A stretch of 62,682 nucleotides of DNA, the filler included, from Gemmatimonadota bacterium (GTDB lineage: Bacteria; 4572-55; J002): the NCBI GenBank assembly GCA_003697105.1. It is 5 parts of 5 records of this genome, joined end to end, with 100 filler letters (N's around TTAATTAATTAA, not from the genome) between each part and the next. Parts side by side here need not be neighbours in the genome. Positions count along the whole stretch, not along the records: positions 57,023 to 62,682 come from RFFQ01000084.1; 4 more parts are not named here. One strand, 5' to 3'. The translations under genes and the position numbers were made by a program. The notes under the pieces are model-generated. The model was given only the letters and a program-made list of their open reading frames with translations, did no database searches and was not told where the DNA came from. How positions within the stretch are numbered: the first letter of the stretch is position 1; each line of letters opens with the position of its first letter. Shown here one piece after another: positions 21,546 to 62,682 of this stretch.

Positions 21546-21714
21546 TACCAAATCCGTTGGAGAACATGGGTTCTATTATATTTTTTCTAAAGTTGTCGTA
21601 CCCTTTGTTTTTAGACTTCTGTCGGGACTTCCGTATTTTTTGTTGAATTATCCGAACAAACGGTGTACAATTAAGTTCAACTCAACACGTTTAAAACATC
21701 TGGGAGGTTTTTTC

Positions 21715-23819: not shown

Positions 23820-23919
23820 NNNNNNNNNNNNNNNNNNNNNNNNNNNNNNNNNNNNNNNNNNNNTTAATTAATTAANNNNNNNNNNNNNNNNNNNNNNNNN
23901 NNNNNNNNNNNNNNNNNNN
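23820..23919. other. Artificial contig/scaffold linker
   Basis: Same N44-TTAATTAATTAA-N44 spacer. Confidence 0.97.
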
Positions 23920-33912: not shown

Positions 33913-34769
33913 TCAACAATACCTTTCACCTGAGAACGTGCATTGACTTCCAGCTCGATATGACGAAAGTGGTGGACTTGAACACGGTGGTTGAATTGCA
34001 ACGCGGCGGCAATCGCCCCGTAAATATTCCCCAGATAAAAAACACCGCCACCCAGACCAAAAACCGCCAATCGGACAGTATGATCGTCTTCGTGCGCTTG
34101 GTATGTTGCCCACGCGGCGGCGGAAATCAGTAAAAAAGAGAAACCCCCATCCTGCCAACGTCCGGCGTAAGTTTGCCCCATCCCGGGAAGTAACGCCGAC
34201 AGCAATCCCGCGACCACCGGTGACCGCCGGGGAAGCCGCAACCCATCTGCCGCCAGACGGGTTAAAACCGGAGATACTGGCATAAATTCCTGCCGTGCCT
34301 GCTCCCAATCATATTGCCGGGCAGCAACCAACCCTTTTAAAAGATGCCCTTCTTGCCAGCATGTATCTGCCGGGGCACAATAGGCGAATAACTGATCGGC
34401 TAATTCACCACTGCGGGAATAATCACCCTGCCGGTACGCAACCACAATTGACGACAAGTAGGCTTTCCGCTGCCAATAGCGTGCGGAATCCGCCTGTAGC
34501 AACGGGGCATAACTCTGCAAGGCAAACTGCCATTTCCCTTGTGCCTGATACGCCTGCCCAATCCGAAATTGGGTCGCCAGTTGTAAGGAATCTGCCGGAA
34601 AAAAATACAAATACCGCTTGTATTCTGATATCGCTCGGAAATGATCCCCCTGCCGGTAGAGTTCATCCGCAAATTTCAATATATCGGGAGCATGAGGTTG
34701 GGCAGTTACGACATTCCCACTCAATACGATCCATACAATCCAGCCGGTCAGCTTGATCAATCTACGCAT
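33909..34769 (-). CDS. Secreted TPR protein, paralog of the downstream gene
   Basis: FADELY..DHFRAISEYKR; RSPVVAGLLSALLPGMGQTYAG; ATGA overlap with the next gene. Confidence 0.75.
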   Translation of the reverse strand: MRRLIKLTGWIVWIVLSGNVVTAQPHAPDILKFADELYRQGDHFRAISEYKRYLYFFPADSLQLATQFRIGQAYQAQGKWQFALQSYAPLLQADSARYWQRKAYLSSIVVAYRQGDYSRSGELADQLFAYCAPADTCWQEGHLLKGLVAARQYDWEQARQEFMPVSPVLTRLAADGLRLPRRSPVVAGLLSALLPGMGQTYAGRWQDGGFSFLLISAAAWATYQAHEDDHTVRLAVFGLGGGVFYLGNIYGAIAAALQFNHRVQVHHFRHIELEVNARSQVKGIVE

Positions 34770-36908: not shown

Positions 36909-37679
36909 TCAATGAATTTTTTCAGTCACCGAAGGATGCGAAAAGAATTGTGAAAGTTGGTCTTTGATCTGGCGTTCCATCTCATGAAAATAGCGATCAT
37001 GAAAGGAATAAACCGTCACTTCAAACTCCACCACATCCGCCGTTTGTCGGACGGACTTGAGACGTGGCTCCCGTTTTAAGGATGCCGCCGGAAAGTTCAG
37101 GATAATCTCCCGTAACCAACTCAAAAATTCGGGATTCACCTGAGACGCCGGTACTTGCAGTTGGAACACATATGTCTTTTCCGTCTCGATGGGGCTTGTT
37201 TTTTTGATAACCCCTTGGGAAATAGTGCTATAGGGGATTTTCACCCGCTCCCCATCGTGGGTTTCGATTTCGAGGATGCGAAATCCCAACGTCCGAATAT
37301 ACCCCTGATAGGTATCCCATTCAAGCCAATCACCTACTTGATACACATCCTCGGATTTTAAGATGATCCCAGCGGCAATATCCCGGATAGCAAACCAGAC
37401 CGAGCCAATCCCCACAGCAACCATGACCCCCAACAGCAGATACGCCAATTGCGGGCTTTCCCGAAAAAGAGATTTGAGCATCTGAAAACTAAAAATAAGC
37501 CAAACCAGCATTTCGACGACGAGAAACCCTTGTCCCAACCGCAACCGGTACGGTTTTTTGAGGTCTGCCCGGTGGAGAACGGTTTGCAAAAGCCGGAAAC
37601 TGATAAACAAAATCACGCCCAGCAGCAGAAATTCGACCAATAGAAATTCCGATATGTTGAAATGCCATGACGGATTCAT
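36909..37679 (-). CDS. Small MscS-family mechanosensitive channel protein
   Basis: Three TM helices, then RDIAAGIIL...YQVGDWL...GYIRTLGFR...VKIPYS (MscS beta domain). Confidence 0.8.
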   Translation of the reverse strand: MNPSWHFNISEFLLVEFLLLGVILFISFRLLQTVLHRADLKKPYRLRLGQGFLVVEMLVWLIFSFQMLKSLFRESPQLAYLLLGVMVAVGIGSVWFAIRDIAAGIILKSEDVYQVGDWLEWDTYQGYIRTLGFRILEIETHDGERVKIPYSTISQGVIKKTSPIETEKTYVFQLQVPASQVNPEFLSWLREIILNFPAASLKREPRLKSVRQTADVVEFEVTVYSFHDRYFHEMERQIKDQLSQFFSHPSVTEKIH

Positions 37680-40600
37680 AGGACTTCCATCTCCTTTAAT
37701 TTGCGCACCAGATACGGATGGAGAAACGGATTAATTTCTAAAATATGATACGTATTTTCCGTGACAATCCCCATCCGTTTGAGGGTTGTGAGGTCTTGCT
37801 TCCAACGTTCGGGGGGACGGCGTAAAATACGAGCCAGCCGGGCACGTGTCAATTTTTTGTGCAAAATAAACTGAATCAGGATCAGAATCCAATCTGGTTC
37901 AAGCAAATTCAAGGGTTTTAGGTCTGGGGTCACCGGTTTACGGATAATCAAGGTTTCATTTTGGATCTCCTGAATATTGGCTATCCACGCTTGAAGCGCC
38001 ACACCCGGATTACCGCGGGAATATTTGAAATACTCCGTAAACAAGCGGGCTTGTTTCCATTCTGCCAAATGTTTCTCGTCGTGCCCATCCAATTGGAAAG
38101 TCAATCCGGTGGAACGGTGTCGCCGTAAAATTAAATCCTTCAATTGTTCCGCATCAAACGGGGGGCAAGAGATTACTTCCAGCATGAGATGGTCTAAGTT
38201 ACGTAACGCATTGATAAAATTGTAGCTATAATGATTCAAATTGAGGATAAAAAAGTATTTATCCCCATAATCCGTCATCAATTGTAAAATACGATTAACG
38301 ACAACCATGCCGCCGGCACTACGCTCCCACCACATATCCAAATCATTGAAAACAAAAACACTATGAGCCGGTAAGGTATTAAAAATATCGCTATAGGGCA
38401 ATTCGGACGCCACGGCATGTTGAACGGTTGTTTCAAACACGGCCAACTCAATTGACCCACCTTGTGGCGGGTCAATGCGATAAACCCGCCGCGTATCAAA
38501 ACATTGATGCGCAATGAAAAGCGAAAGTGCCGTTTTCCCGGAATACCGCTCCCCAATGATGGCTAAGCCTCCGGCAATACCGCTCCGAAAGCGGCGTACT
38601 GCCTGCTCTGCGCGGGCGATCTCAGCCGTAGCACCGATCCAAAACTCCGTACTAATCGTAGGTTTACCGATGAACAACTGTTTATAGTAAAAGGGCAATG
38701 CCGCCAGAATCCGTTTTGGTGGCGAAATGGTATCGACCAGCGCCAACATGCTTTCCACCTTCCCCCCGGCGGTTTCAAGGGGTGAAGTACCCCTTGTGCG
38801 GGATAAGTTGCGGCTCTGATGGTACCACAATTTCACCAGTACCTCCCGTCCAAAACGATACAACTGCTCCAACTGTTCCTGAAATTTGGAGGGCACCGCT
38901 TGGTCCACTTGATGCTGCATATACTGCCCCCAAACACCGGTGGAATGGGTGATAAAGTACAAATTAATCTTTTCAAAGGTCTGTTTTAGATGGCGTTGGG
39001 TGGCTTCATTCAGGATGTTCAAGATTTTTTCGATTTGCTCTCGTTCGCTTTGGATAATCCGTATCCCATCGGTGATTTTTTGGACGGTCGCCTCGTAGAC
39101 GGTCTCCAGATCAATCTCTAAATCGCTGAGATGGAGCGAGACCATGCGGAGTACATCACTGGTGGTGCCTAAGGCTTTGCTCAGTTTGAGCGGCAATTCC
39201 GCCATCACGGCTTGTAAAGGGCGCACAAATTCAGTCGCAATCAGATAATCCACCAGCCGCCGGAGGGATATTGTCAACACCTCAATGCGATCAAACTGGC
39301 GGTTTTCAATCATGTTGAGGGATTCCCCACTCATCACCTCAACCGTTTCCGGCAGTTCACCGGTAACCTCTTGAATTTCAGCGACAAGTTTGTCCATTGC
39401 CTCTTGGATATCAAAATCAACTCGTAGTTCTGGCATAACCGGCAGGGTATAGTCTGTTTTTTCCTGAAGATGGGTGCGCAGTTGCTCCAAGTCCGCCGTT
39501 AATTCTTGGAAGTTTTCACTGATATTTTTCTGCACACTCTGATTCAACTCGGACATCATTTTTTGCACCAGCATCCGCATCCGGCTCTGCAAAGAGGCTA
39601 ACACAAGGTCAGTCAACAGAACATTCAGTACCAAATACTGATTTTTCAACCATAGACTTGGGACATTCAAAATTTGATCCCGTAATGCTTGTGCAGACTT
39701 CGGAACTCTGCGCTGGCGCCGGATAAATTGGTTGACATCGATCCGGTCGGCATCCTGAATCAGCCGTTGCAGGATGTGCCGGCTCTCTCGTAGCAAGGTA
39801 TGGCGGCAAGTATTAAATTTCTCCTGATGACTTGCCGTGGTCTGCGCCGTAAGGGTCTTCAATTTTTCGCGTTCGGCGGCGATAACTTCCGGCGAAAACT
39901 CATCTGTTTGGAGGTGCCGGTCTAAAACGGATAAACTGGACTTTGCCTGTTCTAACAATCGCTGCACCTGATACAGATTTTGGTAGCTATCCACCCCAAA
40001 TTCTTGCAATATCTGGTAAAAAAGGTGGCGTCCTTTGGTTTCTACATAAAAAATTTTAAGGTCACGTAACCGTACATCCTGCGTGATCACTTTTGCGGGA
40101 TTTAGACGTGCTTTCTGCCACTTAAAAAGCTTCAGGCGAAGTGAATCTTCCGGCTGGATGGCAAACCGCTCGAGTTCATAGCCAACATTCAAGGTTTCTG
40201 GGGTGCGGTATGCCAGCTCGGTCATTTGTGAAAAAATCCACGTGATCCCCGCCTCCGCCATCTCCTTTTGGTCGGGCAAGTAATCTGTTTTAAACTCTGT
40301 GAGAATCCGGCGAGCTTGAAACAAGAAATTATTCCGAATTTTGGGGATCACCTTCTGTTGCCGTAAACGCTCCGTGGTGGAAACCTGCTTTTCCAGATCG
40401 GTAAATGTGCGCTGGATCAACTGGTTGATGGTGCCAATCAACTGTTGGTCTGCTCCGTACATCTCTTTCAAGTAGCAGTCGATGTAATCCCGCAGGAGGT
40501 CTTCCAACTGTTGGGCTAACTGCCGTAATGCTCGTTCCAGCGCATCATTTTGGGGAAAGATCAGTGCCGGCAGTTGAAATTCGGTAATAGGGGTGGTGTC

Positions 40601-42823
40601 ATCCTTCAATTTGGGTTGTTTTCGCTCGATCCCGACAAAAATTTCCTCAAAATAGGACGAAGCCCGGATCAACAGCACCGTACCGATTTCATGAAGCAAC
40701 CAATTGGTATTTGCAATAAATTGATCTACATTTTGCGGATTGACATCGGGCATCCCGATGATAGTCAGATCAGAATGCACGGATTCCAGTTTAATCAAGT
40801 CCCGAAAACTGCGCTTTTCAATGGCATTGTTGATCACTTTTACTTCGGCGGGGATGCGATATTCTTCCAATACTCGCCCCATATTTTTGATGATTCGGGG
40901 AGTAAGGGAACTGTCCTCATTCACAATCATGACCCGGATGAGCGCGTCGCGCCATTCATCCGAAACGCGCATAAATTTGACTAACATCAAAGATAAGCTG
41001 ATATTATTACCGGAACCCCGCCACCAAATATCAATTTGCTGGCGTTTGCCATATCCAAACCGGTCATCATAATCAAGTAGTAAGAGATTATAATCCAGCT
41101 CGGTCATGGTGTGGAGCAAGTCCACAAAGCGTGCCGGATTACGGCTGTTGCGCACCCACCCCATCAGCACGGTATTGGGTTCAATTCCGGAAAATCCGTA
41201 GCTCCGCACAATCATATCAATACCGTCATAGATGTTGCGGCAGGTTTGGCGGCGCATAAAAATGCCGGTAAATTCATCCGGGTCGGTCTTCAACGCTTGG
41301 TTGGATTTGGAAAAGAGGACTTTCGTGGTCGTATCTTCAATGAGATCAAAATTGGAGAGAACACCCCGATTTTGTACCAACCATTTACCGAATTGCAACA
41401 AATGCGGACGTTTATCCGTGCCCCCACTAAATAGGATCACGTTGGGCTGCCAGTTTCGTTTGTGAAGGTCACTTTGGTTGAGTTTGAACAGCCCAGAGCG
41501 AACCACCGTAAACCAGACCCCTGCCCAGACATCCCCGGCATCTGTACCGAGTTCCTTGCGCTTGAGATAGAAAAAGATGCCGATCATGATCAGGGAGGAG
41601 GCAATCATTGCCACCACATCCAATAAAATCATAAACAGAAAGCAGACAACCGCACCGACAACGCTTACCCATGTGGGAATCTTAAATTCGGGACGGAAAT
41701 CAGGACTTGCCCAACTTTCAATGGCATACGTCAGGTTGAGGAAACCGTAGGTGGTCATGTAAAACATGGAGACAATGCGGGCGATCAGGTCTAATTCCCC
41801 GCTCCAGATAGCAATCTCGGCAATAATGGCAGTAAAAATGAGGGCATTTCGCGGTTCGTTACCTTCACCAAACCCGATTCCGAAAAGTTTTGGTGTCACT
41901 CGATCCATTGAGAGGGCTTGTAAAATACGTGGTGCTCCCAAAATGCCCCCCATAGCAGAAGAGATGGTCGCCGCCCAAATACCACCCAATACCAGCGGTG
42001 ACCACCACGCAATTTGCTTAAGAATGTTGTAATCCGTGCGAAGAACCTCGCCATCCACAGTTAGACCTAGAAAAATCGCCAAACTAATATAGATCACAAG
42101 TCCGGTTCCTACTGCCGCCATAGTGCCGACCGGAATCGATTTGTTAGGGTCTTTCAAATCTCCTGACATGGCAATACCCGCTGTGAAGCCCGTTACCGCT
42201 GGAAAGAATATCCCAAAAACCTCCGCAAAGGAGCGGGATTCTGCCGGCGCAAACAAATTCACGTGGGTGGGAACAAAATCATGGGAACCCAAAAAGATGG
42301 AAACGAGGGAGAGCGCAATCAACCCCAATACTAAAAATTGCGATTTTAAGGCAAGAGACGTGCTGATAAATGCGAGTGTCGTAACAACAAGCAACGTTAA
42401 AGAACCGGTGAGCCGCAAATCCGCTTTGGTCGTACCTAACGTGATGCCAAAAAATGAATCCAGTAGCGGTGAAAACGCCTCATTGAAACTTTCGGCAAAA
42501 CCGACAATATACAGCGCAATACTAACCGCCGTTCCGGCATAAAGGGCAATACCCAATGCGCCACCAATGGAGAGTCCCAAACTGCGTGAAATGATATAAT
42601 AGACACCTCCAGCTTTGACCCGCTTGTCTGTCGCAATGGAAGACACACTCAATCCAGTGGAGACCGAGATAATGTGCGCAATCAAAATAATCCCAATCGC
42701 TCCGATAATCCCGGCTTGTCCAACGACCCACCCGAGACGCAGGTACATAATCACGCCAAGGATCGTCAGAATCGATGGAGTAAATACCCCCGCAAATGTT
42801 CCGAATTTGTAACCGTTTGCCAT
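37676..42823 (-). CDS. Cation-chloride cotransporter (SLC12/CCC-like) fused to a long helical region, a P-loop NTPase and a winged-helix-like end
   Basis: FGTFAGVFTPSILTILGVIMYLRLGWVVG, GGVYYIISRSLG, FFPAVTG...SGDLKDP, SPDFRP.F, NWQP, IDIWW; C-terminal IIGERYSGKT (Walker A) and VFVFNDLD (Walker B-like). Confidence 0.88.
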   Translation of the reverse strand: MANGYKFGTFAGVFTPSILTILGVIMYLRLGWVVGQAGIIGAIGIILIAHIISVSTGLSVSSIATDKRVKAGGVYYIISRSLGLSIGGALGIALYAGTAVSIALYIVGFAESFNEAFSPLLDSFFGITLGTTKADLRLTGSLTLLVVTTLAFISTSLALKSQFLVLGLIALSLVSIFLGSHDFVPTHVNLFAPAESRSFAEVFGIFFPAVTGFTAGIAMSGDLKDPNKSIPVGTMAAVGTGLVIYISLAIFLGLTVDGEVLRTDYNILKQIAWWSPLVLGGIWAATISSAMGGILGAPRILQALSMDRVTPKLFGIGFGEGNEPRNALIFTAIIAEIAIWSGELDLIARIVSMFYMTTYGFLNLTYAIESWASPDFRPEFKIPTWVSVVGAVVCFLFMILLDVVAMIASSLIMIGIFFYLKRKELGTDAGDVWAGVWFTVVRSGLFKLNQSDLHKRNWQPNVILFSGGTDKRPHLLQFGKWLVQNRGVLSNFDLIEDTTTKVLFSKSNQALKTDPDEFTGIFMRRQTCRNIYDGIDMIVRSYGFSGIEPNTVLMGWVRNSRNPARFVDLLHTMTELDYNLLLLDYDDRFGYGKRQQIDIWWRGSGNNISLSLMLVKFMRVSDEWRDALIRVMIVNEDSSLTPRIIKNMGRVLEEYRIPAEVKVINNAIEKRSFRDLIKLESVHSDLTIIGMPDVNPQNVDQFIANTNWLLHEIGTVLLIRASSYFEEIFVGIERKQPKLKDDTTPITEFQLPALIFPQNDALERALRQLAQQLEDLLRDYIDCYLKEMYGADQQLIGTINQLIQRTFTDLEKQVSTTERLRQQKVIPKIRNNFLFQARRILTEFKTDYLPDQKEMAEAGITWIFSQMTELAYRTPETLNVGYELERFAIQPEDSLRLKLFKWQKARLNPAKVITQDVRLRDLKIFYVETKGRHLFYQILQEFGVDSYQNLYQVQRLLEQAKSSLSVLDRHLQTDEFSPEVIAAEREKLKTLTAQTTASHQEKFNTCRHTLLRESRHILQRLIQDADRIDVNQFIRRQRRVPKSAQALRDQILNVPSLWLKNQYLVLNVLLTDLVLASLQSRMRMLVQKMMSELNQSVQKNISENFQELTADLEQLRTHLQEKTDYTLPVMPELRVDFDIQEAMDKLVAEIQEVTGELPETVEVMSGESLNMIENRQFDRIEVLTISLRRLVDYLIATEFVRPLQAVMAELPLKLSKALGTTSDVLRMVSLHLSDLEIDLETVYEATVQKITDGIRIIQSEREQIEKILNILNEATQRHLKQTFEKINLYFITHSTGVWGQYMQHQVDQAVPSKFQEQLEQLYRFGREVLVKLWYHQSRNLSRTRGTSPLETAGGKVESMLALVDTISPPKRILAALPFYYKQLFIGKPTISTEFWIGATAEIARAEQAVRRFRSGIAGGLAIIGERYSGKTALSLFIAHQCFDTRRVYRIDPPQGGSIELAVFETTVQHAVASELPYSDIFNTLPAHSVFVFNDLDMWWERSAGGMVVVNRILQLMTDYGDKYFFILNLNHYSYNFINALRNLDHLMLEVISCPPFDAEQLKDLILRRHRSTGLTFQLDGHDEKHLAEWKQARLFTEYFKYSRGNPGVALQAWIANIQEIQNETLIIRKPVTPDLKPLNLLEPDWILILIQFILHKKLTRARLARILRRPPERWKQDLTTLKRMGIVTENTYHILEINPFLHPYLVRKLKEMEVL

Positions 42824-47949: not shown

Positions 47950-50900
47950 TCATTTAATGGTGACTTTATAGCTCATCTGCCCGCTTTGCCCAGGAGTGAG
48001 TTCTAGCACATTAACATTCACGTTTGTAAAATCAATTGAAATGGAGTGTCCATCATATCCCCCACCGTCATTATCCCCATCATTGGCATCGGCGGTCAGA
48101 TAAATGGTACTGCCATCGGGACGGACAAACTCAATATCTTGCGAACCCGCGCCGGTATCAAAACCATCATACACGATGTTCACAAATTCTGAAATTGGGT
48201 CGGAGAGATCAATTTGGAGTAACGTATCCGCACCCGCATTGATATATGTCACCGTATAAAGCAGGGTATCTCCGGGTGACGCCACCGCTTTATCAACCGA
48301 TTTGACCAGTTGCATACTGCCGGTCTGCACATCGCCCACCGTTGTCATATCCGTGACACTGCTGGTAATTGCCGGATTATTGACTGACGTGGCAGTAAAG
48401 ACGGTAACATCCACAGCATTATCTGGTGTGCTGGTGGGTACAAACGCCGTCACAATAATATCCACGGTACCCCCTGCCGGCACATTACTCAATGAGGTAA
48501 TCGGGCTGCCGGTTGGGTTTCCACTGCCATCATCCAAGTAAATCGCCCACGCCCAGCCCCGTGAACTGGTAAAGCTTAGATTGACATCATCTGGCACACT
48601 TCCCAAGTTAGTCACATCATGGAAGTAATGGACTCGCGTCCCTTTCGGTACCGTCCGGCTTTGATCTGGCAGAATAATAATACCGCCCAGATGTACCGTA
48701 GCCGAGGCATCTGGTCCGGGGCTGTATTTGCGCCGGTAGGTACTGGTCGGATGGCTATACCACGTATCCACCTGTGCCGTATTGGTAAAGGCAGTACCTA
48801 AGGGGACGATGTCTAAAATATTACTATCCACAATCGCACTGTAATAAATCACCAAGCTATCACCGCCGGAATTGAGAGAGTCGCCGCTACCAAACGTCCA
48901 GGTAATTCGTCCGGTCGTAGAATCATAGACCGCCAAACTCGGGGTTGTCGCCACATTATTGATCTCGTATGCCGGAGCGGGTGAGCCAGTGAGCGGATTA
49001 TCCGAGCGCATCCCATTGGGCACGACATCTGTAATGATAATATCATACGCTTTCGCTGGGGAAGAGCCGCTATTGACCACCTCAATGCGGTATCGAACCG
49101 TATCACCGGCGGCAACGGTCTGTTTATCCGCCGTTTTGGTGATTGACATTCGAGGCTGAACGATAGTATGGCTGGTTGAGGCGTATCGCGACTCATAATC
49201 CGCCGCCAGATCATCACTAAAACCATGGTTCACGTAATTCCAATTTACACTGGCATTATTGGTCACCGTTCCATCCACGCTGGTATTGAGGAATAAATTT
49301 TGTCCGGTGGAATTTTTGCCGGTCACATCAACGGTATAATAAACATAGATGCTTTCCGGGCTAGTGTTCGCATTGGTGATCGGGTTAAACTCCCAGCGGG
49401 GGATAAACCGGCGGAATGAATTCAGCGAATCCGAGATGTCAAAGGAGGTCAACGCCGTATTGGGATCGGTAATGCTGGCATCACTTCGTCCATAGGATAC
49501 GGTTGTGGTATCCATGCGGGTGGCTTCCGGTAACGTATCGACCACCACCGGATAATAGATCACCGTTTGCCGGGGCAATTCGACGGTCAGCGTATAGGAT
49601 TGCCGGTCGCCGATGCGCCAGGTAGTGCCGGTTGGTGTTTTGGTAATGGTCGCGCCTTCAATCGCCACCACACCGGCGGAATCTGGACCCACATCCGCAT
49701 AAGCAGGGGTCGAATCGGTGTCGCGTTCGAGTGGTAGATTGCCCGGCAACGTACTGTAATCGATCACATCCACCCGGTTCGTGATCAGTTTGGAAGATTC
49801 CATAATCTCGGAATTCAGAGTCGCCGTATATTCCAGTAAAACGGTTTCGGCGGTATCTACCCGGGCCGTCGCATTACTGGCATTGGTGATCAACGTGATA
49901 ATCCATTCTCCGGTCGCCGCCGTGTAAGATCGACTGTAATCCACACCGTCAGTCAGAGCGCGTCCACCCGAGGTGAACGTGGTAATCGTCGGTTCGGTAC
50001 CGTTCATTTCCGCCGGGATGGTATCCCGAATTACCACATCATAGGCGGCAGAATTACCGGTATTTTGAAATGTGACGGTGTAATTGACCGAACTCACTCC
50101 CGGGCGCACAATCGGATTACCATTTCCGTCCGTTCCGAGGTTGGGTGCAACCGGCGGGACATCCAAGTTCTTGACCAGATTGGAGATCGTTGGTTCGATG
50201 ATAGTTGCTTGTACCGGATTGGATTGAATCTGGGTGACCGATGCTGGATTGCCATTGATGGTATTCCAGCGGAAACCTGCCCGGTTGGTCAACACACTAT
50301 CTCGTGCCACATCCGGCGAACCTCCAAAATATTGTTGATCCACGTTCGTGCGCATCGTGATGCGATAGGGATTGACCGTCGCATTCCCCGGCAAACTTCC
50401 TAATGAGAGGGCAATGGTATCTCCCAAACCGGTATAGAGCGTATCAATGGAGCCGCTGTTATTCTGGAATCGCAGGTCAACCAGCGAGACACCATCCGGC
50501 AAGGTATCCAGAAAGACGGATTGGTAAGCCGTCGTCTGATTTGGTACATCAAATTCAATGATATAATAGAGCGTATCCCCGATGGTCGTTACAACATCCG
50601 TGCTATCGGTAGGGGAGGGGTCCACAAAAACGGAATATTGATTTTTGATTTGTGTCGGTAATCCATCGGTAAACGCTAAAGCAGTATCATTTTGGGTCGA
50701 TTGGTACACCCGCTCAAAAGGGGTTGAACCGGGCAGACTGGAAAAGGTATCCACGACCGCATGGTTGACCATGTAGGCTGAGGTACCAATACTGGCATCG
50801 ACTTGCAGTTGGTAATTAATCGTCACCGTTTCCCCCGGATAAACGGGTGTGTTTGCGGTACTATCAAATTCGATGGTAAAGACTGTGCCATCGTACAAAA

Positions 50901-53900
50901 GGGTGGTATCTCCCGCACCTAAAGTCCGTGCGCCGACCGTGATTGAAATCGATAAGGTGGTGGGGTCGGTATCGCGCATACCCTGCGGCACGGTATCCCG
51001 AAAGACGGTTTCATAGGCAACTCCATCCCCGACATTATCAAACGTAACGGTATAATTGACAATCTGCGTTCCCGAGACCGGATTACCGGTGGTCTGTGTC
51101 TTGACAAAATTCGCAAATTCCGGCTCATTGACATACGTGGTGACGGTATTCGTAACGGAACTTAACTGCGTCCCCACATCATCATTGATGTAATTCCACG
51201 TGAAATAGCCGGTATTACTGAACGAATCGGTACTATCGACCGGGCTTCCCCCATTGAACGTGGAATCCACACGAGCGGTAATATCAATCGTTACCGTTAA
51301 CCCTGCGGCGCCACCGAAAAGAGAATCAAACTCGGCACCGCTCACTTGGACCAGAGTTGTCCCATTCCCTTGCGGTGTCTCCGTAATCGTCCCATGCGTG
51401 GTACTGGTGTTTAGAACCGTTAGCCCATCTGGGATGGTATCGCGGAAGACGACATCGTAAGCAGTAGCACTATCCGGCACAATAAACTGAATCTGGTAAT
51501 AAATTTCCTCACCGATCTGCACCGAATCCCCATCCGCCGGCGCATGATACTGGGTCGTCACCGATTTAGACGAGGTGGGACCTCGCGTATAAAACGTATT
51601 ACAATCTGGACCCACTTGGGTATAGACGCGCTCTGGGGTGACATAGGCACTGTCCGCGGGACCGGTGAAGTTCCCATACTGGGCCGTATCTTTAATGGAG
51701 GTATAACTGAGCACAGCGGCACAGTTCTGCATGGTAACACCTGCCCCAATGGAGGAATCAACCGTCGCGGTATAGGTTATCGTAATGACTTCATTGGGGT
51801 CCACCACGGCAGTAGCGGTGGTATCAAACGCAATGGTGAGTACCCCTGTACCGCTGTTAAAACTGGCGTTAAAATCCGTTCCGGAGGTAAATGCACCATC
51901 GGTACTACTGGTAATTGCTACCGTACCAGAAGGATCGGTTAAGCGCATTCCGATAGGCAACGTATCCACCACCACTACATCATAGGCAGGGGAATCAAAG
52001 TTATAGCCGGGGTAATTATTATCAAAAGTCAACGTAAAGGGGATATTTTCGTTTGCTTGTACCGTATCATCGGGGGTCGTGTGGGTCTTCGTAAAACTGA
52101 TAATCTGCGGTTCGATGACATAATAACGGATATTAGGACCGTAATCTTCATCTTGGGTCGTCGGATTCCCATTTTCATCGTACGTATCCCAATTAAAATC
52201 ATTCACACCGCGATTTTGGGTCCGGACTCGCAGTTCATCGCTAACGTCCACGACCCCGTTGAGTGGACCCGCCTCATTTTGCCCACTGCCACCCCCGTGA
52301 TAATTGCTCATGACACTCGCAATAACGGTAATGGTGACCAGTGAGTCGCTCGCTCCGGCCCGGATTCGATCCCATTGGACTTCAAAACCACGATACGTCC
52401 CTGTCCGAATATAATTGAAAATATTGGGGTTATCTCCACCATTAATGGTAATTTCCTGAATTTCCCAGCCATCATCCAATTGAATCAACGCATTTGGATT
52501 ATAGGCTTGCGTATATGCCGGCACGGTAATTTCGTAGGTAATGGTGGTATATTCCCCAATGGTAATATGGGGGCGATTTGATCCACCGTCATATGTGGTG
52601 GACTGCTGTCGCGTAAAGCTACGGGAAAGCGTGACATTGGGGGTCTGAAAACTAATGGATTGCAACAAGTTCGGGTCATACGTGCGTTCATTTGCACTGG
52701 TATCTGGCATGGAGGTATAACCGGTTATATCTGCATAATTGGAGAGGGTCACCAAGGTTTGACCAGCGGTTGCGATTCCATTTGCCGAGATGGTATCATC
52801 AACATCCACCGTGTACTGAATAAAGAGCGTATCCAAGGGTGCCAGACCCCCTTGGGTGCTATCTCCTTGCGTTTTGAAGGTTAAAATACCTGTTGCCGCC
52901 GTGTAGGTGGTATCAATAACCCCTAACACGACGAGATCACGGGTGCTACCGGCATCTGGACGGATTTCCACCGTATTGATCGTGGGTGTTGCATTTCGCA
53001 TCCCATACGGCAGAGTATCCGCAATGGTAATTTGATATGCCGGAGACGTTCCACTGTTGACCGCCCGCAACGTGAACACAATTGTGGAATCCCCATTGAT
53101 CGTGCCCGAAATGTTACTGGTTTTGCTGAATGTACTGACGTTTGGCTCAACAATATAATAATCAATGGTACGGGACATCGTCGTCGGGAAAGCGTTATGA
53201 TTGTAATTGACCCCGTAAATGGAAAAATCGGTATAACCGGTATTCGGTAGTTGGGTGGGAATGGTGTAATCATTTCCCGGCACATCCTGCGGTCGCGTGG
53301 CATATTGGATAACAACTTCCCCTTGACCTCCTGGACTCACAAAATCCGCCACAGTCCAGACCAATGACGGCGCCGTTGAATCGGATAACGTGACGGTCGA
53401 ACCGGTGGTATTGGTAATAATACTGAAACTGCCCGGCACATACTCCATACCGGTCGAAATGGAATCACCAATGGTCACTCCGGTATAATTCCCCGCGGCA
53501 AACAGATTGAGCGAATCTCGATGGAAAATGGGATTCCCGATGGTTCCATAGGCGGTGCTGTCTGAGGTCACGGCGCCGGGCTGCACGGTGGACCAGTGAA
53601 CTTTGTTAAATTCCACTCCGGCAACCGTTACAATCGCCGGGGTCGTATCATAGCTATGGCGGCAGATACGGGTACCCGCGCCATCCACACACCAGCCTTC
53701 CACTACACCCAATACATTAAGGGAATCGGGCCCAACAATCGCGCTAAAAACCGCCGATTTGGTATCATTTCCGCCAGCCGCTTCAATGGTATCAATATCG
53801 GTATAATCCCAATAAAGAACGCTATCACCGATAATCGTTGCCACACCTAATGAATCTACCCCGCCTCCTTGTCCACTTTCTTGCACGATACTACTAAATC

Positions 53901-56900
53901 CGTTACCGAGTTCAATGTTGAGATAAAGAGAATCCGCGGCACCATCTCCCACATTCGTCAAGGTTACGGTAAATGTAACGCGTTGACCTAACCCTGCCGT
54001 TTGCAAGGTGGGTGTAATGTCGATATTCACATTGGGGGTGAGGGGATTAACGGTTGTCGTTGCAGGTGGGGATACAATTGGGTCACCGCATGTGTTGGTA
54101 TAATCTAGGTCAACAACATTATCACTTGTCGGTACGATACCGGGGTCACTATTCAAGTCGGAATCACAATAGGTACCATCACCTTCCACCCGAAACGTAA
54201 TGGTGATCCGCTCACCCGGGATGATGGTATCCACTTCGGTTGCCCATTGGATGATAGTACCACCGGCAGACGTATCGGGCTCCGTATCGGCAAAGGTACG
54301 TCCGGTGGGCAAACCGGTACTAATATACGTACTCGTAATCGTTGCCGTGCCCTGATCATAGACATAGCCTGTGGGTAGGGTATCCGTGACGACCACATTC
54401 CGCGCTACGGAACTCGGCATTCCACCGGTGGTATCGTTATCCACAATGATACGCATCTCACCGCCACAGGTGCTAAAATCTGCCGAGGAAACCACGCTTG
54501 TCGCCCCTGCCACCGAAGGTTGCGTCACCACGGTTCCAGAGGTGACACTGGTAAACAAATCCCGGCAACTACTGGCATTACATCCCCAATACACATACGC
54601 CAAATTCGTGACCGGGTCCACACAACTATCCACAACAGTATAAATATAATATTCCGACAACCCTAACGGCAGGTCCGATGCTAAGGTAAATTCATACGCT
54701 CCATTCACGATGTTGACACTACTGATCGCCGGTGCACTCCCTTGGGGAACAATTGTTTGATACTGCAAATTGGATGGAATACTATCCCGAATGAGAGCAT
54801 TCTGGGCAGTGGCATTTCCATTATTATAAATCTGAATGCGATAATAGACCGGTTCGTTATAGGACGCATAAATGGTATTACTCCACGACCCTGTCGTATC
54901 TTTTGCCACATCCTTATTTAAGGTGATGATCGGCTCTTTAATCTCGATGGTGATCGAGTTAGAGAGTGAAATTTCCGTTGCTGTTGAGGTGCCCGAGGTA
55001 TCCACTTGGCACGGAGTCGAATACCGCGCCACCGTACTGGTACGACGATTCGCCGAAAAATCACAGGTCGTACGAACTTCAAAGAAGATTTTGAGGGTAT
55101 CCCCCACATCCAGAGAGGCTAATTCAGGAATTTCGGTTTTCGTCCAGAGCAACAAGGTATCGCCGGCCGTAAAACCAGCCGGGTCATTTGTGGCGGTACG
55201 TGCACCACTATTGAGTTGAACTTTCGTCGTTCCGGTTTGATATTCAAACCCCGTTTGAAGAAAATCATACTCAGCTTCGATATTATAATCCGTAGTTGCC
55301 CCATTATTGATCAAATAGATTGCTAAGGTATCCGTCGAACACAACTCGACGGAATCTGGCACCACATTTCGCGCCCGTAAATTGGAGTTCGGGACGGTAA
55401 ATCGGGGAACACCATCTTTGACGATGGGTGTGGCACAACTTCCCGGACAGTTTTTGTACCATGTGGTGGTAGAAGAGGTCTGATCGGCTAAATCACAATC
55501 GGTCCCTTTCAGACGGGTAAAAACGGTAATGGTATCCGTTTGACCGGGCGCAAGGTCGCCCAAATCAATATCAAAGGTTGTCTTGTTGACTTGATAATTA
55601 AACGTAATCAATGAATCTTGACGACTACCGTTCACATAGACGGAATCCAGCCGCAGATGTTGCCCAATGGAATCATATAAGGCCGTATTAAAAGCGGTGC
55701 CGCTTCCGGAATTGGTCACATAAATAATCCAACTCGGGTTGATATTCTCGACGGTCACATCGTTTGGAGTAAAAATCACACTGACATCGGCAACAGTATT
55801 CAACAACGGTTCATCACTATTGGTCACTGAACCATATACCGTACCGCATGCATCTCGCTCGTGGAGTGCGACATTCAGCAATTTTGGCGTCCCGCAGATT
55901 TTAGTCAGGAGCAGTCGAATCGTTCCGGTGGCGCTGGTATTCGGCGTGTTCAGGAAGCGGAACACTAAACTATCAGCATAGGCGGTCGTATCCGAAGGCA
56001 ATACCCCACCAAATCCGGTGATCGATGTGACGGAATTATACAGGTAATTTGTCGTTTCAATAACAACTTCAACGGTATCCGCATTCCAGTTGGAACCGGA
56101 AACACCCACCAGATCAATATCAACGGAGATCGTATCACAATCGGCAACAATATTTCGTGAAAAATTAGGAGTAATGGTGATATTGGGGGTCGGAATGGTA
56201 AACGACAGATTATCCGTGGCAAAAGCTGGGTCGGTACAATTATAATCTACCCGGGCGTTAATACTCGTGGTGGGGGTACAATCGTTATAAATTTTTGCCT
56301 GAATCGTTCCCGTACCGACAGGCAAGCTCGAGCCAGCAAAAGAAAATCGCGTGCTGTCCCCCAACGTGATAATGGTCGGCTTAATATTCCCAAAGCCACT
56401 AACACTGTTGGTATCCACGAACACATAATCGGGGTGAATTAAGGTTACAAAAACCGAATCGGCGGTGTAATTGGTAATATTTAGGTCAATATCCACATCA
56501 AAGGTATCAAAGACGGCCGCCGCTTGGGAAAGAGCAAGGGTAATCCCCGGATTCGATTGCACAAAATTAACCGTCTGGACATAATCCCCATTACCACCGC
56601 CCCCACAACCGGCATTGTTACCGTTAATCGACAAGGTGGAAGTAGTCGGATACGTGAGGGTGGAATCGGGTCCGATATTGGGCGGGTCAAATGAGAGATC
56701 GTATTGGATAATCAGTTGGTCACCACGCACAAAATCATCGGCTTCATCGAATAAAAAGTCCAGTGTGATGTAGATCGAATCATTCGAGACGGTTGAATCC
56801 GCAACTGGAATCGGGTTGGGACCAAACACGGTGGAGTTGCTATCCGTTAAAGTGTAGGTGAGATTTCCTGCATATTGCATATTGGGATGGGTTGTAGTTG

Positions 56901-56922
56901 CCAAAAAGGTGGAATTGGTCCA
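47950..56922 (-). CDS. Giant DUF11 / isopeptide-domain repeat surface protein (>2980 aa), N-terminus lost in the gap
   Basis: Frame is open up to the gap (WTNSTFLATT...); repeated K...Y.I...N.G...A..V.I.D(T/S)(L/I)P.G...N.A modules; T/S/D-rich. Confidence 0.88.
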   Translation of the reverse strand, partial: WTNSTFLATTTHPNMQYAGNLTYTLTDSNSTVFGPNPIPVADSTVSNDSIYITLDFLFDEADDFVRGDQLIIQYDLSFDPPNIGPDSTLTYPTTSTLSINGNNAGCGGGGNGDYVQTVNFVQSNPGITLALSQAAAVFDTFDVDIDLNITNYTADSVFVTLIHPDYVFVDTNSVSGFGNIKPTIITLGDSTRFSFAGSSLPVGTGTIQAKIYNDCTPTTSINARVDYNCTDPAFATDNLSFTIPTPNITITPNFSRNIVADCDTISVDIDLVGVSGSNWNADTVEVVIETTNYLYNSVTSITGFGGVLPSDTTAYADSLVFRFLNTPNTSATGTIRLLLTKICGTPKLLNVALHERDACGTVYGSVTNSDEPLLNTVADVSVIFTPNDVTVENINPSWIIYVTNSGSGTAFNTALYDSIGQHLRLDSVYVNGSRQDSLITFNYQVNKTTFDIDLGDLAPGQTDTITVFTRLKGTDCDLADQTSSTTTWYKNCPGSCATPIVKDGVPRFTVPNSNLRARNVVPDSVELCSTDTLAIYLINNGATTDYNIEAEYDFLQTGFEYQTGTTKVQLNSGARTATNDPAGFTAGDTLLLWTKTEIPELASLDVGDTLKIFFEVRTTCDFSANRRTSTVARYSTPCQVDTSGTSTATEISLSNSITIEIKEPIITLNKDVAKDTTGSWSNTIYASYNEPVYYRIQIYNNGNATAQNALIRDSIPSNLQYQTIVPQGSAPAISSVNIVNGAYEFTLASDLPLGLSEYYIYTVVDSCVDPVTNLAYVYWGCNASSCRDLFTSVTSGTVVTQPSVAGATSVVSSADFSTCGGEMRIIVDNDTTGGMPSSVARNVVVTDTLPTGYVYDQGTATITSTYISTGLPTGRTFADTEPDTSAGGTIIQWATEVDTIIPGERITITFRVEGDGTYCDSDLNSDPGIVPTSDNVVDLDYTNTCGDPIVSPPATTTVNPLTPNVNIDITPTLQTAGLGQRVTFTVTLTNVGDGAADSLYLNIELGNGFSSIVQESGQGGGVDSLGVATIIGDSVLYWDYTDIDTIEAAGGNDTKSAVFSAIVGPDSLNVLGVVEGWCVDGAGTRICRHSYDTTPAIVTVAGVEFNKVHWSTVQPGAVTSDSTAYGTIGNPIFHRDSLNLFAAGNYTGVTIGDSISTGMEYVPGSFSIITNTTGSTVTLSDSTAPSLVWTVADFVSPGGQGEVVIQYATRPQDVPGNDYTIPTQLPNTGYTDFSIYGVNYNHNAFPTTMSRTIDYYIVEPNVSTFSKTSNISGTINGDSTIVFTLRAVNSGTSPAYQITIADTLPYGMRNATPTINTVEIRPDAGSTRDLVVLGVIDTTYTAATGILTFKTQGDSTQGGLAPLDTLFIQYTVDVDDTISANGIATAGQTLVTLSNYADITGYTSMPDTSANERTYDPNLLQSISFQTPNVTLSRSFTRQQSTTYDGGSNRPHITIGEYTTITYEITVPAYTQAYNPNALIQLDDGWEIQEITINGGDNPNIFNYIRTGTYRGFEVQWDRIRAGASDSLVTITVIASVMSNYHGGGSGQNEAGPLNGVVDVSDELRVRTQNRGVNDFNWDTYDENGNPTTQDEDYGPNIRYYVIEPQIISFTKTHTTPDDTVQANENIPFTLTFDNNYPGYNFDSPAYDVVVVDTLPIGMRLTDPSGTVAITSSTDGAFTSGTDFNASFNSGTGVLTIAFDTTATAVVDPNEVITITYTATVDSSIGAGVTMQNCAAVLSYTSIKDTAQYGNFTGPADSAYVTPERVYTQVGPDCNTFYTRGPTSSKSVTTQYHAPADGDSVQIGEEIYYQIQFIVPDSATAYDVVFRDTIPDGLTVLNTSTTHGTITETPQGNGTTLVQVSGAEFDSLFGGAAGLTVTIDITARVDSTFNGGSPVDSTDSFSNTGYFTWNYINDDVGTQLSSVTNTVTTYVNEPEFANFVKTQTTGNPVSGTQIVNYTVTFDNVGDGVAYETVFRDTVPQGMRDTDPTTLSISITVGARTLGAGDTTLLYDGTVFTIEFDSTANTPVYPGETVTINYQLQVDASIGTSAYMVNHAVVDTFSSLPGSTPFERVYQSTQNDTALAFTDGLPTQIKNQYSVFVDPSPTDSTDVVTTIGDTLYYIIEFDVPNQTTAYQSVFLDTLPDGVSLVDLRFQNNSGSIDTLYTGLGDTIALSLGSLPGNATVNPYRITMRTNVDQQYFGGSPDVARDSVLTNRAGFRWNTINGNPASVTQIQSNPVQATIIEPTISNLVKNLDVPPVAPNLGTDGNGNPIVRPGVSSVNYTVTFQNTGNSAAYDVVIRDTIPAEMNGTEPTITTFTSGGRALTDGVDYSRSYTAATGEWIITLITNASNATARVDTAETVLLEYTATLNSEIMESSKLITNRVDVIDYSTLPGNLPLERDTDSTPAYADVGPDSAGVVAIEGATITKTPTGTTWRIGDRQSYTLTVELPRQTVIYYPVVVDTLPEATRMDTTTVSYGRSDASITDPNTALTSFDISDSLNSFRRFIPRWEFNPITNANTSPESIYVYYTVDVTGKNSTGQNLFLNTSVDGTVTNNASVNWNYVNHGFSDDLAADYESRYASTSHTIVQPRMSITKTADKQTVAAGDTVRYRIEVVNSGSSPAKAYDIIITDVVPNGMRSDNPLTGSPAPAYEINNVATTPSLAVYDSTTGRITWTFGSGDSLNSGGDSLVIYYSAIVDSNILDIVPLGTAFTNTAQVDTWYSHPTSTYRRKYSPGPDASATVHLGGIIILPDQSRTVPKGTRVHYFHDVTNLGSVPDDVNLSFTSSRGWAWAIYLDDGSGNPTGSPITSLSNVPAGGTVDIIVTAFVPTSTPDNAVDVTVFTATSVNNPAITSSVTDMTTVGDVQTGSMQLVKSVDKAVASPGDTLLYTVTYINAGADTLLQIDLSDPISEFVNIVYDGFDTGAGSQDIEFVRPDGSTIYLTADANDGDNDGGGYDGHSISIDFTNVNVNVLELTPGQSGQMSYKVTIK

Positions 56923-57315: not shown

Positions 57316-58743
57316 TTATTCTCCTATCGATTCATTTTTGTAGATCATCAATAACCCATCCGATTCACAAACTACAATGAGTTCTAGGTCGCCGTCGTTA
57401 TCCAAATCAGCGAGTTCTACATCGCGGGGGGCATCTGGGGTTTTAATGGTCTTCCATTCCCGAAAATACCGCCCGTTAAAGTTCAGCAGAATTTTCACCG
57501 AACCTTCGACATAATTAGCAACTACCAGGTCCATATCTGCATCGCCATCTACATCACCGGTTTTGATGGCGGTGGGCCAATTTCCACTGGGGTAATCCAA
57601 TTCGGGGTAGAAGGACCCATCCCCCCGGTTGATCAACACTGCGATAGAATCCCGCCCGGCATCTGCCGCGATCAAATCCAGAAAACCATCTTTATTCAAA
57701 TCGGCGGAATGCAACGCTGTCGGATAGCCTCCGAGTTCCACATCGATCTTATCTGCTAATTTGGCGTTGCCCTCATTCATAAACAGACTGACCGTATTGG
57801 TATAGCGATTTGCAACGGCGACATCAAACCGCCCATCCACATTCCAATCCCCCGTCACCACGCTCGAAACCGAGTTTCCGGTGGTAAACGTGAGGGGGTC
57901 TAGCAGATTCCCATCACCGGTATTCAAAAAGAGTGAAATATTGTCATCTTCAAAGTTGGCTACAATGACTTCCAAAAAACCATCATTGTCCAGATCGACC
58001 GCATCCACGGCAATGGGTTGTGTCCCGCAAGGGCTACCCACCTCCTGCCCAAATTGACCGGTGCCATCGTTCAAAAACACGGTAATTTCATTGGTTTGGG
58101 CGCGGGGGATTAGCAAATCGAGGTCGCCATCCAGTTCAATGTCTGTCGCCAAAATGCTGGAAGGCTCACCCGCCGCGCGATACTCCATTTTGGTGAATTG
58201 GTAATCCCCGTGATTGATGAATACCGTGACGGAGTGCGAACCTTGATTGGCAATAGCTAAATCAAGGTCGCCATCGGCTTCGGCATCAAACGCCACAACC
58301 GCTTGGGGCCACCGCCCCACTTTCCGGGGATCCATCGACTCGAAATTGCCAAGTGAGGGGCGCGTTTCAATCTGAAATTGCCAGCCAAAATCATCTAAAA
58401 ATGGTGTCCCATCTGCCGGAATAATTTTGTGTGTGACAATCACGGTAACCCGTTCCCCGGGAAAAAATGCCCGGGAAGACCGAAATGTGACGGTATGCGT
58501 TGCCCGATCATACGAAAATTGCTCCGTATGTTGCCCAGATTGCGATCCCATGATACGAATCCCCGCTGGGCCAATTTCCCATAAGTTCAACGGATTGGAA
58601 AAACGCAACACGACCGGCGAGATCCGTTTTACATCTTGGGCATTAATCGGGGGGGCTAACGCCGTGATACGAGTGCTATCCGCCGCTAGCGAGATTCCCC
58701 ACGCCACAAACAGAAAAAAAAGAATGAGATACCGAATTTTCAT
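57316..58743 (-). CDS. Secreted Ig-like (Big_5/SbsA-type) + FG-GAP/VCBS repeat protein
   Basis: GAGGAG RBS before ATG 58743; signal peptide; FFPGERVTV Ig domain; about seven DxDxDGxLD repeats. Confidence 0.85.
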   Translation of the reverse strand: MKIRYLILFFLFVAWGISLAADSTRITALAPPINAQDVKRISPVVLRFSNPLNLWEIGPAGIRIMGSQSGQHTEQFSYDRATHTVTFRSSRAFFPGERVTVIVTHKIIPADGTPFLDDFGWQFQIETRPSLGNFESMDPRKVGRWPQAVVAFDAEADGDLDLAIANQGSHSVTVFINHGDYQFTKMEYRAAGEPSSILATDIELDGDLDLLIPRAQTNEITVFLNDGTGQFGQEVGSPCGTQPIAVDAVDLDNDGFLEVIVANFEDDNISLFLNTGDGNLLDPLTFTTGNSVSSVVTGDWNVDGRFDVAVANRYTNTVSLFMNEGNAKLADKIDVELGGYPTALHSADLNKDGFLDLIAADAGRDSIAVLINRGDGSFYPELDYPSGNWPTAIKTGDVDGDADMDLVVANYVEGSVKILLNFNGRYFREWKTIKTPDAPRDVELADLDNDGDLELIVVCESDGLLMIYKNESIGE

Positions 58744-58875
58744 CAAGATTCTCCTCTGGAGGATGTTTCGTATTGCGCAAAGTATTGAACCGGCTGTCAA
58801 AAGTCAATGATTTTGGTTTGTGGTGCTGAATTTTCGGCAAAACCACCTCAATTCAGGCTATAGTATATATTTTTG

Positions 58876-61133: not shown

Positions 61134-61168
61134 AAAAAACCCGCTTTATCCCAACGGATAAAGCGGGT
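61134..61168 (-). terminator. Intrinsic terminator of the DUF1573-like gene
   Basis: ACCCGCTTTATCC-CAAC-GGATAAAGCGGGT perfect 13-bp stem, followed by a T-run on the minus strand. Confidence 0.75.
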
Positions 61169-61271: not shown

Positions 61272-62027
61272 TTACTTTTGAGTGTTTTGACCCGTAGGAG
61301 TTACTTCCTCCACCCGACCATAGGTACGGACTTGCACCGATTTTTGCGAACCATCTTTATTTTTGAGATTCGTGATCGGAATGTTGATAAAACCACTCAA
61401 AATCCGGCGATCCATGTTTTTAGGGTGAAATGTTCCCGTTATTTTCATGCTTTCACCGGGTTTCAGTTCGGTTTTTTCGATCACTACTTTCAGATCGGCA
61501 CTGGGGGAAACCGGCTCTCCCAACTGAATCGTCTTTTGGGTGCGGTTTGTCAACGTAACTTCTGCCGTTGCTTCCGTCCCAACTTTTACCAATTGAAAGT
61601 TTAAATACGAAGGACTCACATCATACGGAACAATGACCGTCCCTTCCATCGCAAATTGAAACGACGGATTGTCCGGATCGTTCGTCGTAACCGTAATCGA
61701 TTTTCGTTGATGGTTTTTCTTATGAGCTGTTTTGAAGGTTGCCGTAATTTCTCCAACCCCACCGGGGTGGATTTTGTCAGCCGAAGCCAACGCTGCGGTA
61801 CACCCTCAGCTGCCTTTGACGTTGAAGATCTCTAACGTATCGTCACCGGTGTTTTTGAAGCGAAAAATATGCGTGACATTTTCGCCTTCCATCACCTCAC
61901 CGAACTTATAGGTGACATCACCTACCGGTTCGAATTTAGGAGCGGCAACACCGACAGAGACGACCGCAAAGACCAGCACTAAGCAGAGCAAGCCGGTAAT
62001 CCCAGCGCGAGCGATGCTGTGCTTCAT
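61272..62027 (-). CDS. Secreted DUF1573-like protein with in-frame TGA (61806-61808), putative selenoprotein, ~251 aa
   Basis: The two listed ORFs are in the same frame and separated only by TGA: ...FRFKNTGDDTLEIFNVKGS-TGA-GCTAALASADKIHPGGVGEI...TVTTNDP. The family motif is SCGCT. GAGGAG lies 9 nt before ATG 62027. Confidence 0.75.
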
Positions 62028-62204
62028 GATAAACATCTCCTCAGTTGAAAATGAAAAAAATTAGTGAATTAAAACAATGATGCATCGGGGAAAATAATAC
62101 GTCCCCCCCTTAGATGCAAGTGTTAATATAGACGAAAGTTACCTGCCCAGCTTGCACCGCAAAGATAATAATACGATCAAGAAAGAGTAACGTTTGTGTC
62201 CCCT

Positions 62205-62682
62205 TTACCGGAGTAACACCATTGATTTCATCTGGATTGTCTGCTCCGTTTGCAATTGAGACACATATACCCCCGATGGGACTGCCATACCCTGCGCATC
62301 GTTGCCGTTCCACTCCACCGTGTGATACCCGGCTGGGGTGGATTCTTGAATCAGCGTTGTGACCAAGCGCCCGTCAATGGTGTAAATCGAAAGATTCACG
62401 TTCGCCTCGTGGGGTAAGTCAAAGCGGATGGTGGTTTTGGGGTTAAATGGGTTCGGATATGCCGCATAGAGTGTGATCTGTTGCGGCACGGCGACCGTCT
62501 CCTGAATCCACTTGACCGGCTGTTCGTTGATCTGCCCGGAGCGGATCGCCAGATTGGCGAGATTCCCCAAACGGAGCAAATCGGGGGTGGTTAGGGGTGT
62601 CACACCGAAGGCACCGACCCGCCACTGATTTTCGACCCGATTGATTGCCAGTTGCCAATTTGCCGGCACACTGGGGGCGAGG
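62205..62682 (-). CDS. C-terminal part of a secreted protein with FlgD-Ig / T9SS-type-A-like sorting domain (5' end outside the window)
   Basis: YPNPFNPKTTIRFDLP...IYTIDGRLVTTL...GYHTVEWNG...VPSGVY...KSMVLLR. Confidence 0.85.
   Translation of the reverse strand, partial: LAPSVPANWQLAINRVENQWRVGAFGVTPLTTPDLLRLGNLANLAIRSGQINEQPVKWIQETVAVPQQITLYAAYPNPFNPKTTIRFDLPHEANVNLSIYTIDGRLVTTLIQESTPAGYHTVEWNGNDAQGMAVPSGVYVSQLQTEQTIQMKSMVLLR

Follow-up and report, generated by a model that had tools for sequence, protein, structure and literature searches.

The window analysed here, a stretch of 62,682 nucleotides of DNA (62.7 kb, filler included), contains on its minus strand two ORFs of 76 and 172 aa, and we consider it likely (probability about 0.75) that they are one gene whose UGA at codon 77 is recoded as selenocysteine (Sec, U) in a SelB-dependent way, giving a full-length exported protein with two Ig-like domains and a U-G-C centre, a candidate selenoprotein. 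The case for Sec is well supported at the level of sequence and rests on the column in which the TGA falls, its identity in the contigs of two samples, the intact frame downstream of it, the hairpin that follows, the relatives with a TGA and the SelB of those relatives.

Gene structure and reading frame

The gene and its signals are located as follows (positions along the window).

61272..62027, minus strand: CDS of the selenoprotein candidate, 251 codons from ATG 62027 with one in-frame TGA; stop codon TAA at 61274-61272
61272..62036, minus strand: alternative CDS from ATG 62036, 254 codons; the read-through product P0001 is numbered from here
61806..62036, minus strand: ORF of 76 aa, N-terminal half of the DUF1573 gene (ORF listing)
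61272..61790, minus strand: ORF of 172 aa with TTG start, C-terminal half (ORF listing)
61806..61808, minus strand: in-frame TGA, proposed Sec codon, residue 77 of P0001 and residue 74 when counted from ATG 62027
62037..62042, minus strand: Shine-Dalgarno-like GAGGAG, 9 nt before ATG 62027 and directly abutting ATG 62036
61139..61168, minus strand: intrinsic-terminator-like hairpin with 13 bp in its stem and a T run behind it, about 100 nt past the TAA stop

The TGA lies in the context AAA GGC AGC TGA GGG TGT ACC, translated on the minus strand as K-G-S-U-G-C-T, and 177 codons are intact between it and the TAA. A sequence-only reading made before this analysis had taken the two ORFs as a single frame split by one TGA, and both the ORF listing and the translation agree with it. 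Judging from the sequence, ATG 62027 is a likelier start than ATG 62036, because it stands 9 nt from the GGAG while the GGAG touches ATG 62036; the extent that the earlier reading gave to the gene implies the same start. That reading had also treated TGA as a normal stop with no genome-wide change of the code, and indeed TGA ends 10 of the 32 long ORFs in the window, including those at 3157, 9272 and 12148. There are 34 TGA codons in the window that are flanked by at least 50 open codons on both sides, and a Cys at +2 (U-G-C) is found only at the one studied here, the other 33 being judged by their 21-residue contexts and positions alone.

The best surviving alternative, which we regard as unlikely, is a nonsense pseudogene, in which a Cys-form DUF1573 gene would recently have changed TGC or TGT into TGA and the downstream frame would not yet have decayed. 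A single base change suffices for this; on the other hand, all of the codons after the TGA are intact and both domains of the read-through product score well.

Protein domains and structure

To describe the product, we list the segments of the read-through protein with their coordinates in the window.

61941..62027, minus strand: signal peptide MKHSIARAGITGLLCLVLVFAVVSVGVAA, likely cut before PKF (from the sequence, with a predicted cleavage site); modelled as a helix at residues 7-26 and then a linker
61635..61913, minus strand: DUF1573 (PF07610) Ig-like domain, residues 42-134 of P0001 (Pfam), which holds S-U-G-C-T
61317..61619, minus strand: second Ig-like domain of the ASH / choice-of-anchor D type, residues ~140-240

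The DUF1573 match of the read-through product has a Pfam score of 105.8 bits (E = 1.2e-30), passes the gathering cut-off of 26.1 bits, covers profile positions 7-98 of 98 and crosses the TGA at residue 77 without interruption; therefore the 172-aa ORF begins within the domain, as the sequence-only reading had noticed. Its description of the product as an exported DUF1573 Ig-like protein likewise fits the predicted signal peptide and the Pfam match. The second domain is matched by ASH (2.5e-09) and TMEM131_like_N (1.2e-06) in Pfam and by choice_anch_D in NCBIfam (48 bits against a cut-off of 45). In the sequence of the candidate, the single Cys besides the U-G-C motif sits in the signal peptide.

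An AlphaFold model built on an alignment of 19 sequences consists of two beta-sandwiches with a mean pLDDT of 90.6, and it places U77-G78 in the turn joining strands 68-75 and 80-84. Searching PDB with the sequence of the window protein gave 0 matches. The fold matches in PDB are generic tandem ASH/Ig-like structures, such as ciliary central-pair proteins, the SPD-2 domain of CEP192 and 2qsv (function unknown), and no functional lead came from this fold search.

The domain boundaries bear on another alternative, in which the UGA is a true stop and the locus makes an exported fragment of 73-76 aa plus a TTG-started protein of 172 aa, or is read through at a low level by selenium-free near-cognate decoding. 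Gene callers do list the two halves as separate proteins (P0002 and P0122), and the downstream ORF, to which the earlier reading had assigned no ribosome-binding site, is nearly but not entirely without one, since there is a weak GAGGG that shares bases with the TGA and stands 12 nt ahead of the TTG. However, such a split would cut a beta-sandwich domain in two and leave the 172-aa product without a signal peptide, and we consider a true stop very improbable.

Sequencing support for the TGA

Between the Logan contigs of samples X1 and X2 and this stretch there are 0 differing letters, at a word depth of 22 and 19, respectively; both samples come from the same hot-spring study, X1 may be the source of the window, and contigs drop minor variants. 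Nothing specific speaks for a sequencing or assembly error with TGC or TGT as the true codon beyond this loss of rare variants and the single study behind both samples, and since the contigs of two samples are identical, a random error is unlikely and this explanation hardly credible. Sample X3 has no coverage of the stretch, and among the sequencing runs listed no RNA dataset contains it.

The conserved Cys column and protein homologues

In the alignment of 19 sequences, the TGA falls in the column where SCGC has its first Cys, and this column holds C in all of the 16 other homologues that cover it. The motif xCGCx is present in 183 of the 187 retrieved homologues, the exceptions being the two halves from the window, P0007 and P0008. 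The match of the UGA to a conserved Cys of SCGC, claimed by the sequence-only reading, is thus borne out. As to whether homologues carry Cys or TGA at this column, both occur, with Cys in nearly all of the retrieved protein homologues and TGA in a number of relatives, above all from Calditrichia-like bacteria.

The closest full-length homologues are four metagenomic proteins, P0003-P0006 (39-52% identical in the alignment), which share the two-domain layout and the signal peptide with the window protein and differ from it in having SCGC in place of S-U-G-C. Cys in all four of them is what a nonsense pseudogene would predict. For the C-terminal part the closest relatives are P0007 (53% identical) and P0008 (54%), both of which are without everything before the TGA column, and this shared lack counts against a pseudogene. 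P0007 begins at 'MASAD', as does the TTG-started 172-aa ORF, and this coincidence of starts suggests that P0007 comes from a diverged orthologue with the same TGA.

When genome and metagenome contigs were scanned with the single window protein, no relative was found. A query made from an alignment of 4 sequences retrieved 160 loci, of which the closest is 52% identical over a segment and the best long match 39%. The DNA of a close orthologue was not recovered among the contig scans, including these 160 loci.

Sec-form relatives and constraint on their hairpin

Among the 160 loci, xUGC occurs in a DUF1573 context at five (L030, L052, L070, L081 and L136); two more matches to the xUGC pattern turned out to be spurious. 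In the Calditrichia-like phylum (that of genome G002), 35 of the 66 best matches, from 34 of 86 genomes, contain one in-frame TGA. All of these loci were inspected, and the TGA falls in the same xUGC column in 35 of the 35. Apart from a frame of 350 aa in G047, the TGA-form relatives are all single-domain proteins, whose open frames measure about 140-190 aa.

Compared with the window gene, the Calditrichia-like Sec-forms have xUGCT at the same column and a hairpin that starts about 18 nt after the U of UGA. They differ in that they are 32-47% identical to the window protein over the first domain only and are without the second one. Their hairpin, CUUCUG-AGUU-CAGAAG, has no sequence in common with that of the window, and the peptide encoded there is LLSSEV in the relatives and LASADK in the window, whose RNA folds nonetheless.

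We aligned the 35 relatives to examine this hairpin. It has 6-7 bp and spans nt 18-35 counted from the U of UGA, with 91.8% of the cells paired, against only 31-47% in a control in which the 3' partners were slid. The pair 21-32 occurs as U-A in 27 relatives, as C-G in 7 and as U-G in 1, and no relative leaves it unpaired. The covariation score was reached by 0 of 500 shuffles, where it should be kept in mind that only one pair covaries and that the sequences are related. The codons tell more: CTG, AGT and TCA within the hairpin are invariant in 35 of 35, while the neighbouring codons for Gly, Thr, Ala and Pro vary among 3-4 synonyms. This contrast between invariant hairpin codons and variable flanks indicates that selection acts on the RNA itself. 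The loci L081, L030 and L205 have hairpins of unrelated sequence at a similar distance from the UGA.

We also looked at gene neighbourhoods. Around 14 Sec-form relatives, no shared neighbour gene was obvious from a by-eye reading of ORF lengths and first residues. The window ends 646 bases upstream of the selenoprotein candidate, within a gene with a T9SS sorting tail. Because no shared neighbour stood out and the upstream gene is cut by the window end, the operon context says little.

Candidate SECIS hairpins in the window

Two hairpins, A and B, can form in the RNA downstream of the UGA, and they exclude each other.

61776..61798, minus strand: candidate SECIS region with the mutually exclusive hairpins A and B (RNA folding)

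Hairpin A (61798-61781, nt 11-28 after the U of UGA) has a stem of 6 bp with one mismatch, the 4-nt loop GUUG, a free energy of -7.9 kcal/mol and an ensemble probability of 0.43-0.44. Hairpin B (GUUGGC-UUCG-GCUGAC; 61791-61776, nt 18-33) has 6 bp, the loop UUCG, -6.5 kcal/mol and a probability of 0.55, and it stands at the position of the conserved hairpin of the relatives, which speaks against a pseudogene. The sequence-only reading had proposed hairpin B together with an outer GGGUG/CACCC stem. The former holds up; the outer stem can pair (-5.2 kcal/mol alone, and -12.2 kcal/mol for hairpin B plus the outer stem), but its probability in a 60-nt context is 0.00, and we rejected it. The SECIS-like distance that was claimed agrees with the position of the hairpins, 11-33 nt past the UGA. 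The whole 76-nt fold is unexceptional when compared with shuffled sequences (z = -0.82).

The bSECIS model, as laid out in the legend of Fig. 2 of PMC13188914, asks for a loop of 3-9 nt with a G as its first or second base, an upper stem of 4-16 bp, a UGA-to-loop distance of 16-37 nt and an MFE of at most -7.5 kcal/mol; the same review states that some bacterial SECIS elements do not fit the model. Both window hairpins lie within the ranges for loop size and upper stem. Hairpin A also agrees with the model in the G of its loop and its -7.9 kcal/mol, and its UGA-loop gap is 14 nt when counted from the A and 17 nt from the U. Hairpin B agrees with it in a gap of 20 nt, but not in the loop UUCG or in -6.5 kcal/mol alone. 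The window resembles the bSECIS consensus in its small hairpin within the coding sequence soon past the UGA, whose loop has 4 nt and includes a G and whose stem has 6 bp, and differs from it in that neither hairpin fits all four constraints.

We then compared the best hairpin within nt 9-45 between forms. Its median is -8.1 kcal/mol in 15 Sec-forms, which represent only about 5 independent hairpin sequences, against -3.2 kcal/mol in 131 Cys-forms (Mann-Whitney p = 1.5e-7). Of these Cys-forms, 12 have a hairpin that equals or exceeds that of the window (-7.9 kcal/mol) in stability, so a pseudogene could carry one by chance. Taken alone, the SECIS evidence for the window is suggestive and short of decisive.

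Selenocysteine machinery

In the 62.7-kb window, we found no tRNA, no Rfam match at the gathering score and no sel gene, and the evidence for Sec machinery comes from the genomes of relatives, a point that favours the pseudogene. SelB (TIGR00475) is above the cut-off in 70 of the 86 Calditrichia-like genomes. Among those with the TGA form it passes in 33 of 34, the exception being G024. For this threshold, only E. coli and M. jannaschii passed among 14 control genomes. The SelB-less genomes G032 and G038 have Cys forms. Five genomes of Sec-form relatives were searched for the other components: all five have SelA and tRNA-Sec (the latter by a model that also passes its cut-off in 5 of the 14 control genomes), and four have SelD.

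Besides, three SelD genes in relatives contain one in-frame TGA, presumably for Sec (G003:C15:66755-67678, G004:C141:3838-4758 and G050:C245:765-1691). The genomes G003 and G004 have, in addition to the TGA-containing SelD, a longer SelD fusion that is free of stops and has an open frame of about 750 aa.

Relation to the known DUF1573 selenoprotein family

A DUF1573 selenoprotein family with U-G-C has been known in the literature since 2007, and a curated model of it exists. OS_HP2 appears in Table 2 of Zhang & Gladyshev (2007 NAR, PMC1976440) as a new selenoprotein of Olavius symbionts, and it is given as pfam07610 with UxC among the GOS selenoproteins (Zhang & Gladyshev 2008 PLoS Genet, PMC2398784); the lists in two reviews of 2022 and 2026 contain 'DUF1573, UGC' (PMC9312934, PMC13188914). 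Like the members of this family, the window gene has its in-frame UGA where homologues have the first Cys of the CGC motif. As far as the table rows and legends describe the family, it shares with the window gene the Pfam domain, the U-G-C column and the order of UGA and then hairpin, and the window protein differs in its extra ASH-type Ig domain. Measured against the same table rows and legends, the window gene adds a two-domain, hot-spring member to a known DUF1573 selenoprotein family. In the literature searched, we found no functional work on DUF1573 proteins.

These records also bear on the alternatives. If the gene were a pseudogene, its stop would have fallen on exactly the column known as Sec in the DUF1573 family. 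The use of Sec at this column by the family, in genomes with SelB, also argues against a true stop.

The best NCBIfam match of the window protein is NF041425, 'OS_HP2 family (seleno)protein', with 97.6 bits, which misses the cut-off of 100 by 2.4 bits. We ran the model on nine other Sec-form domains, eight from the Calditrichia-like phylum and one from the phylum of G001, and obtained 69.6-86.1 bits; the Cys-form P0003 has 85.9 bits. It turned out that all ten Sec-form domains tested (window plus nine) score below the cut-off. Because the Sec-form scores are all under 100 bits, NF041425 does not take in all Sec-containing DUF1573 proteins. Annotation pipelines that apply it at 100 bits would probably miss the Sec-forms (loci L172-L179 and L181-L204, genomes G002-G050) as selenoproteins and may leave fragments.

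For annotation, the two ORFs of the window should become one selenoprotein gene, and the same applies to dozens of relatives. What is new is that the Sec-form is common in one phylum (34 of 86 species genomes), tracks SelB and has a hairpin with invariant synonymous sites. The biological gain is modest, a two-domain hot-spring member being added to a known selenoprotein family.

Proposed mechanism and possible function

If the UGA is recoded as Sec, the locus would be one gene with an exported product of about 222 residues once the signal peptide is removed, comprising two Ig-like domains. SelB with Sec-tRNA(Sec) would bind the mRNA hairpin 11-33 nt past the UGA, a step modelled on known bacterial Sec insertion, Sec would be delivered instead of termination, and translation would go on for the remaining 177 codons to the TAA. 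In the mature protein, U77 and C79 would be the sole selenol and thiol, on either side of a tight turn that links two beta-strands.

CXC motifs can be redox-active. From the modelled position of the two residues, we infer that U77 and C79 most likely form a reversible selenenylsulfide or a two-ligand site for a soft metal on a periplasmic or surface Ig-like scaffold, which would make the protein a redox or metal-handling module. A wider picture is conceivable but doubtful: Sec-form DUF1573 proteins might be lineage-wide, routinely mis-annotated extracytoplasmic selenoproteins of Calditrichia-like bacteria, in which U-G-C on an Ig-like scaffold, not on a thioredoxin fold, serves as a site for soft metals (Cu, Hg) or polysulfide, and the two-domain hot-spring form might present this site at the cell surface. 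With a Sec-form that is common in one phylum, tracks SelB and has a constrained hairpin, the DUF1573 family is well suited to finding out the role of a U-G-C turn on an Ig-like fold.

Other genes in the window and in relatives

A GatE-like protein of 647 aa with GatB/GatE domains is encoded at 34884-36827 (minus strand); GatE is a subunit of the archaeal-type GatDE amidotransferase. Its homologues, at about 65% identity, are annotated as GatE in MAGs of Caldithrix, Calditrichia, Cloacimonetes and Neomarinimicrobiota (the 120 matches listed include 8 named organisms). In the Calditrichia-like phylum, a strong copy of GatE (E <= 1e-78) is present in 25 of the 86 genomes, the near-full-length copies being 59-72% identical. 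With GatE as the single marker (about 65% identity), the window organism may be placed loosely near Calditrichia. In the phylum of G001, which is the source of the best-matching Sec-form locus L081, no GatE was found, and this absence ruled it out as the phylum of the window. The two ORFs downstream of GatE (33058-34769) have no Pfam match. Among the relatives, the GatE homologue at G043:C1:422728-424628 is interrupted by one TGA and one TAA and could reflect a defective gene or faulty assembly.

Several other genes of the window have unusual sizes or arrangements. For instance, an ORF of 1715 aa (37676-42823, minus strand) matches amino-acid permease / SLC12 in its first ~560 residues, and the other ~1150 residues have no Pfam match at 1e-5. 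Two CLC chloride-channel paralogues with CBS domains, of 625 and 626 aa, adjoin each other with no gap at 15738-19496 (plus strand). Very large surface-type proteins are encoded at 47950-56904 (minus), 23868-28106 (minus), 21640-23871 (plus) and 57316-58800 (minus), the set comprising a protein of 2984 aa with DUF11/DUF7619, one of 1412 aa with CARDB and two FG-GAP repeat proteins. The gene at 62205-62681, which is truncated at the end of the window, has a T9SS sorting tail, and this tail together with the large surface proteins fits an organism of the FCB group.
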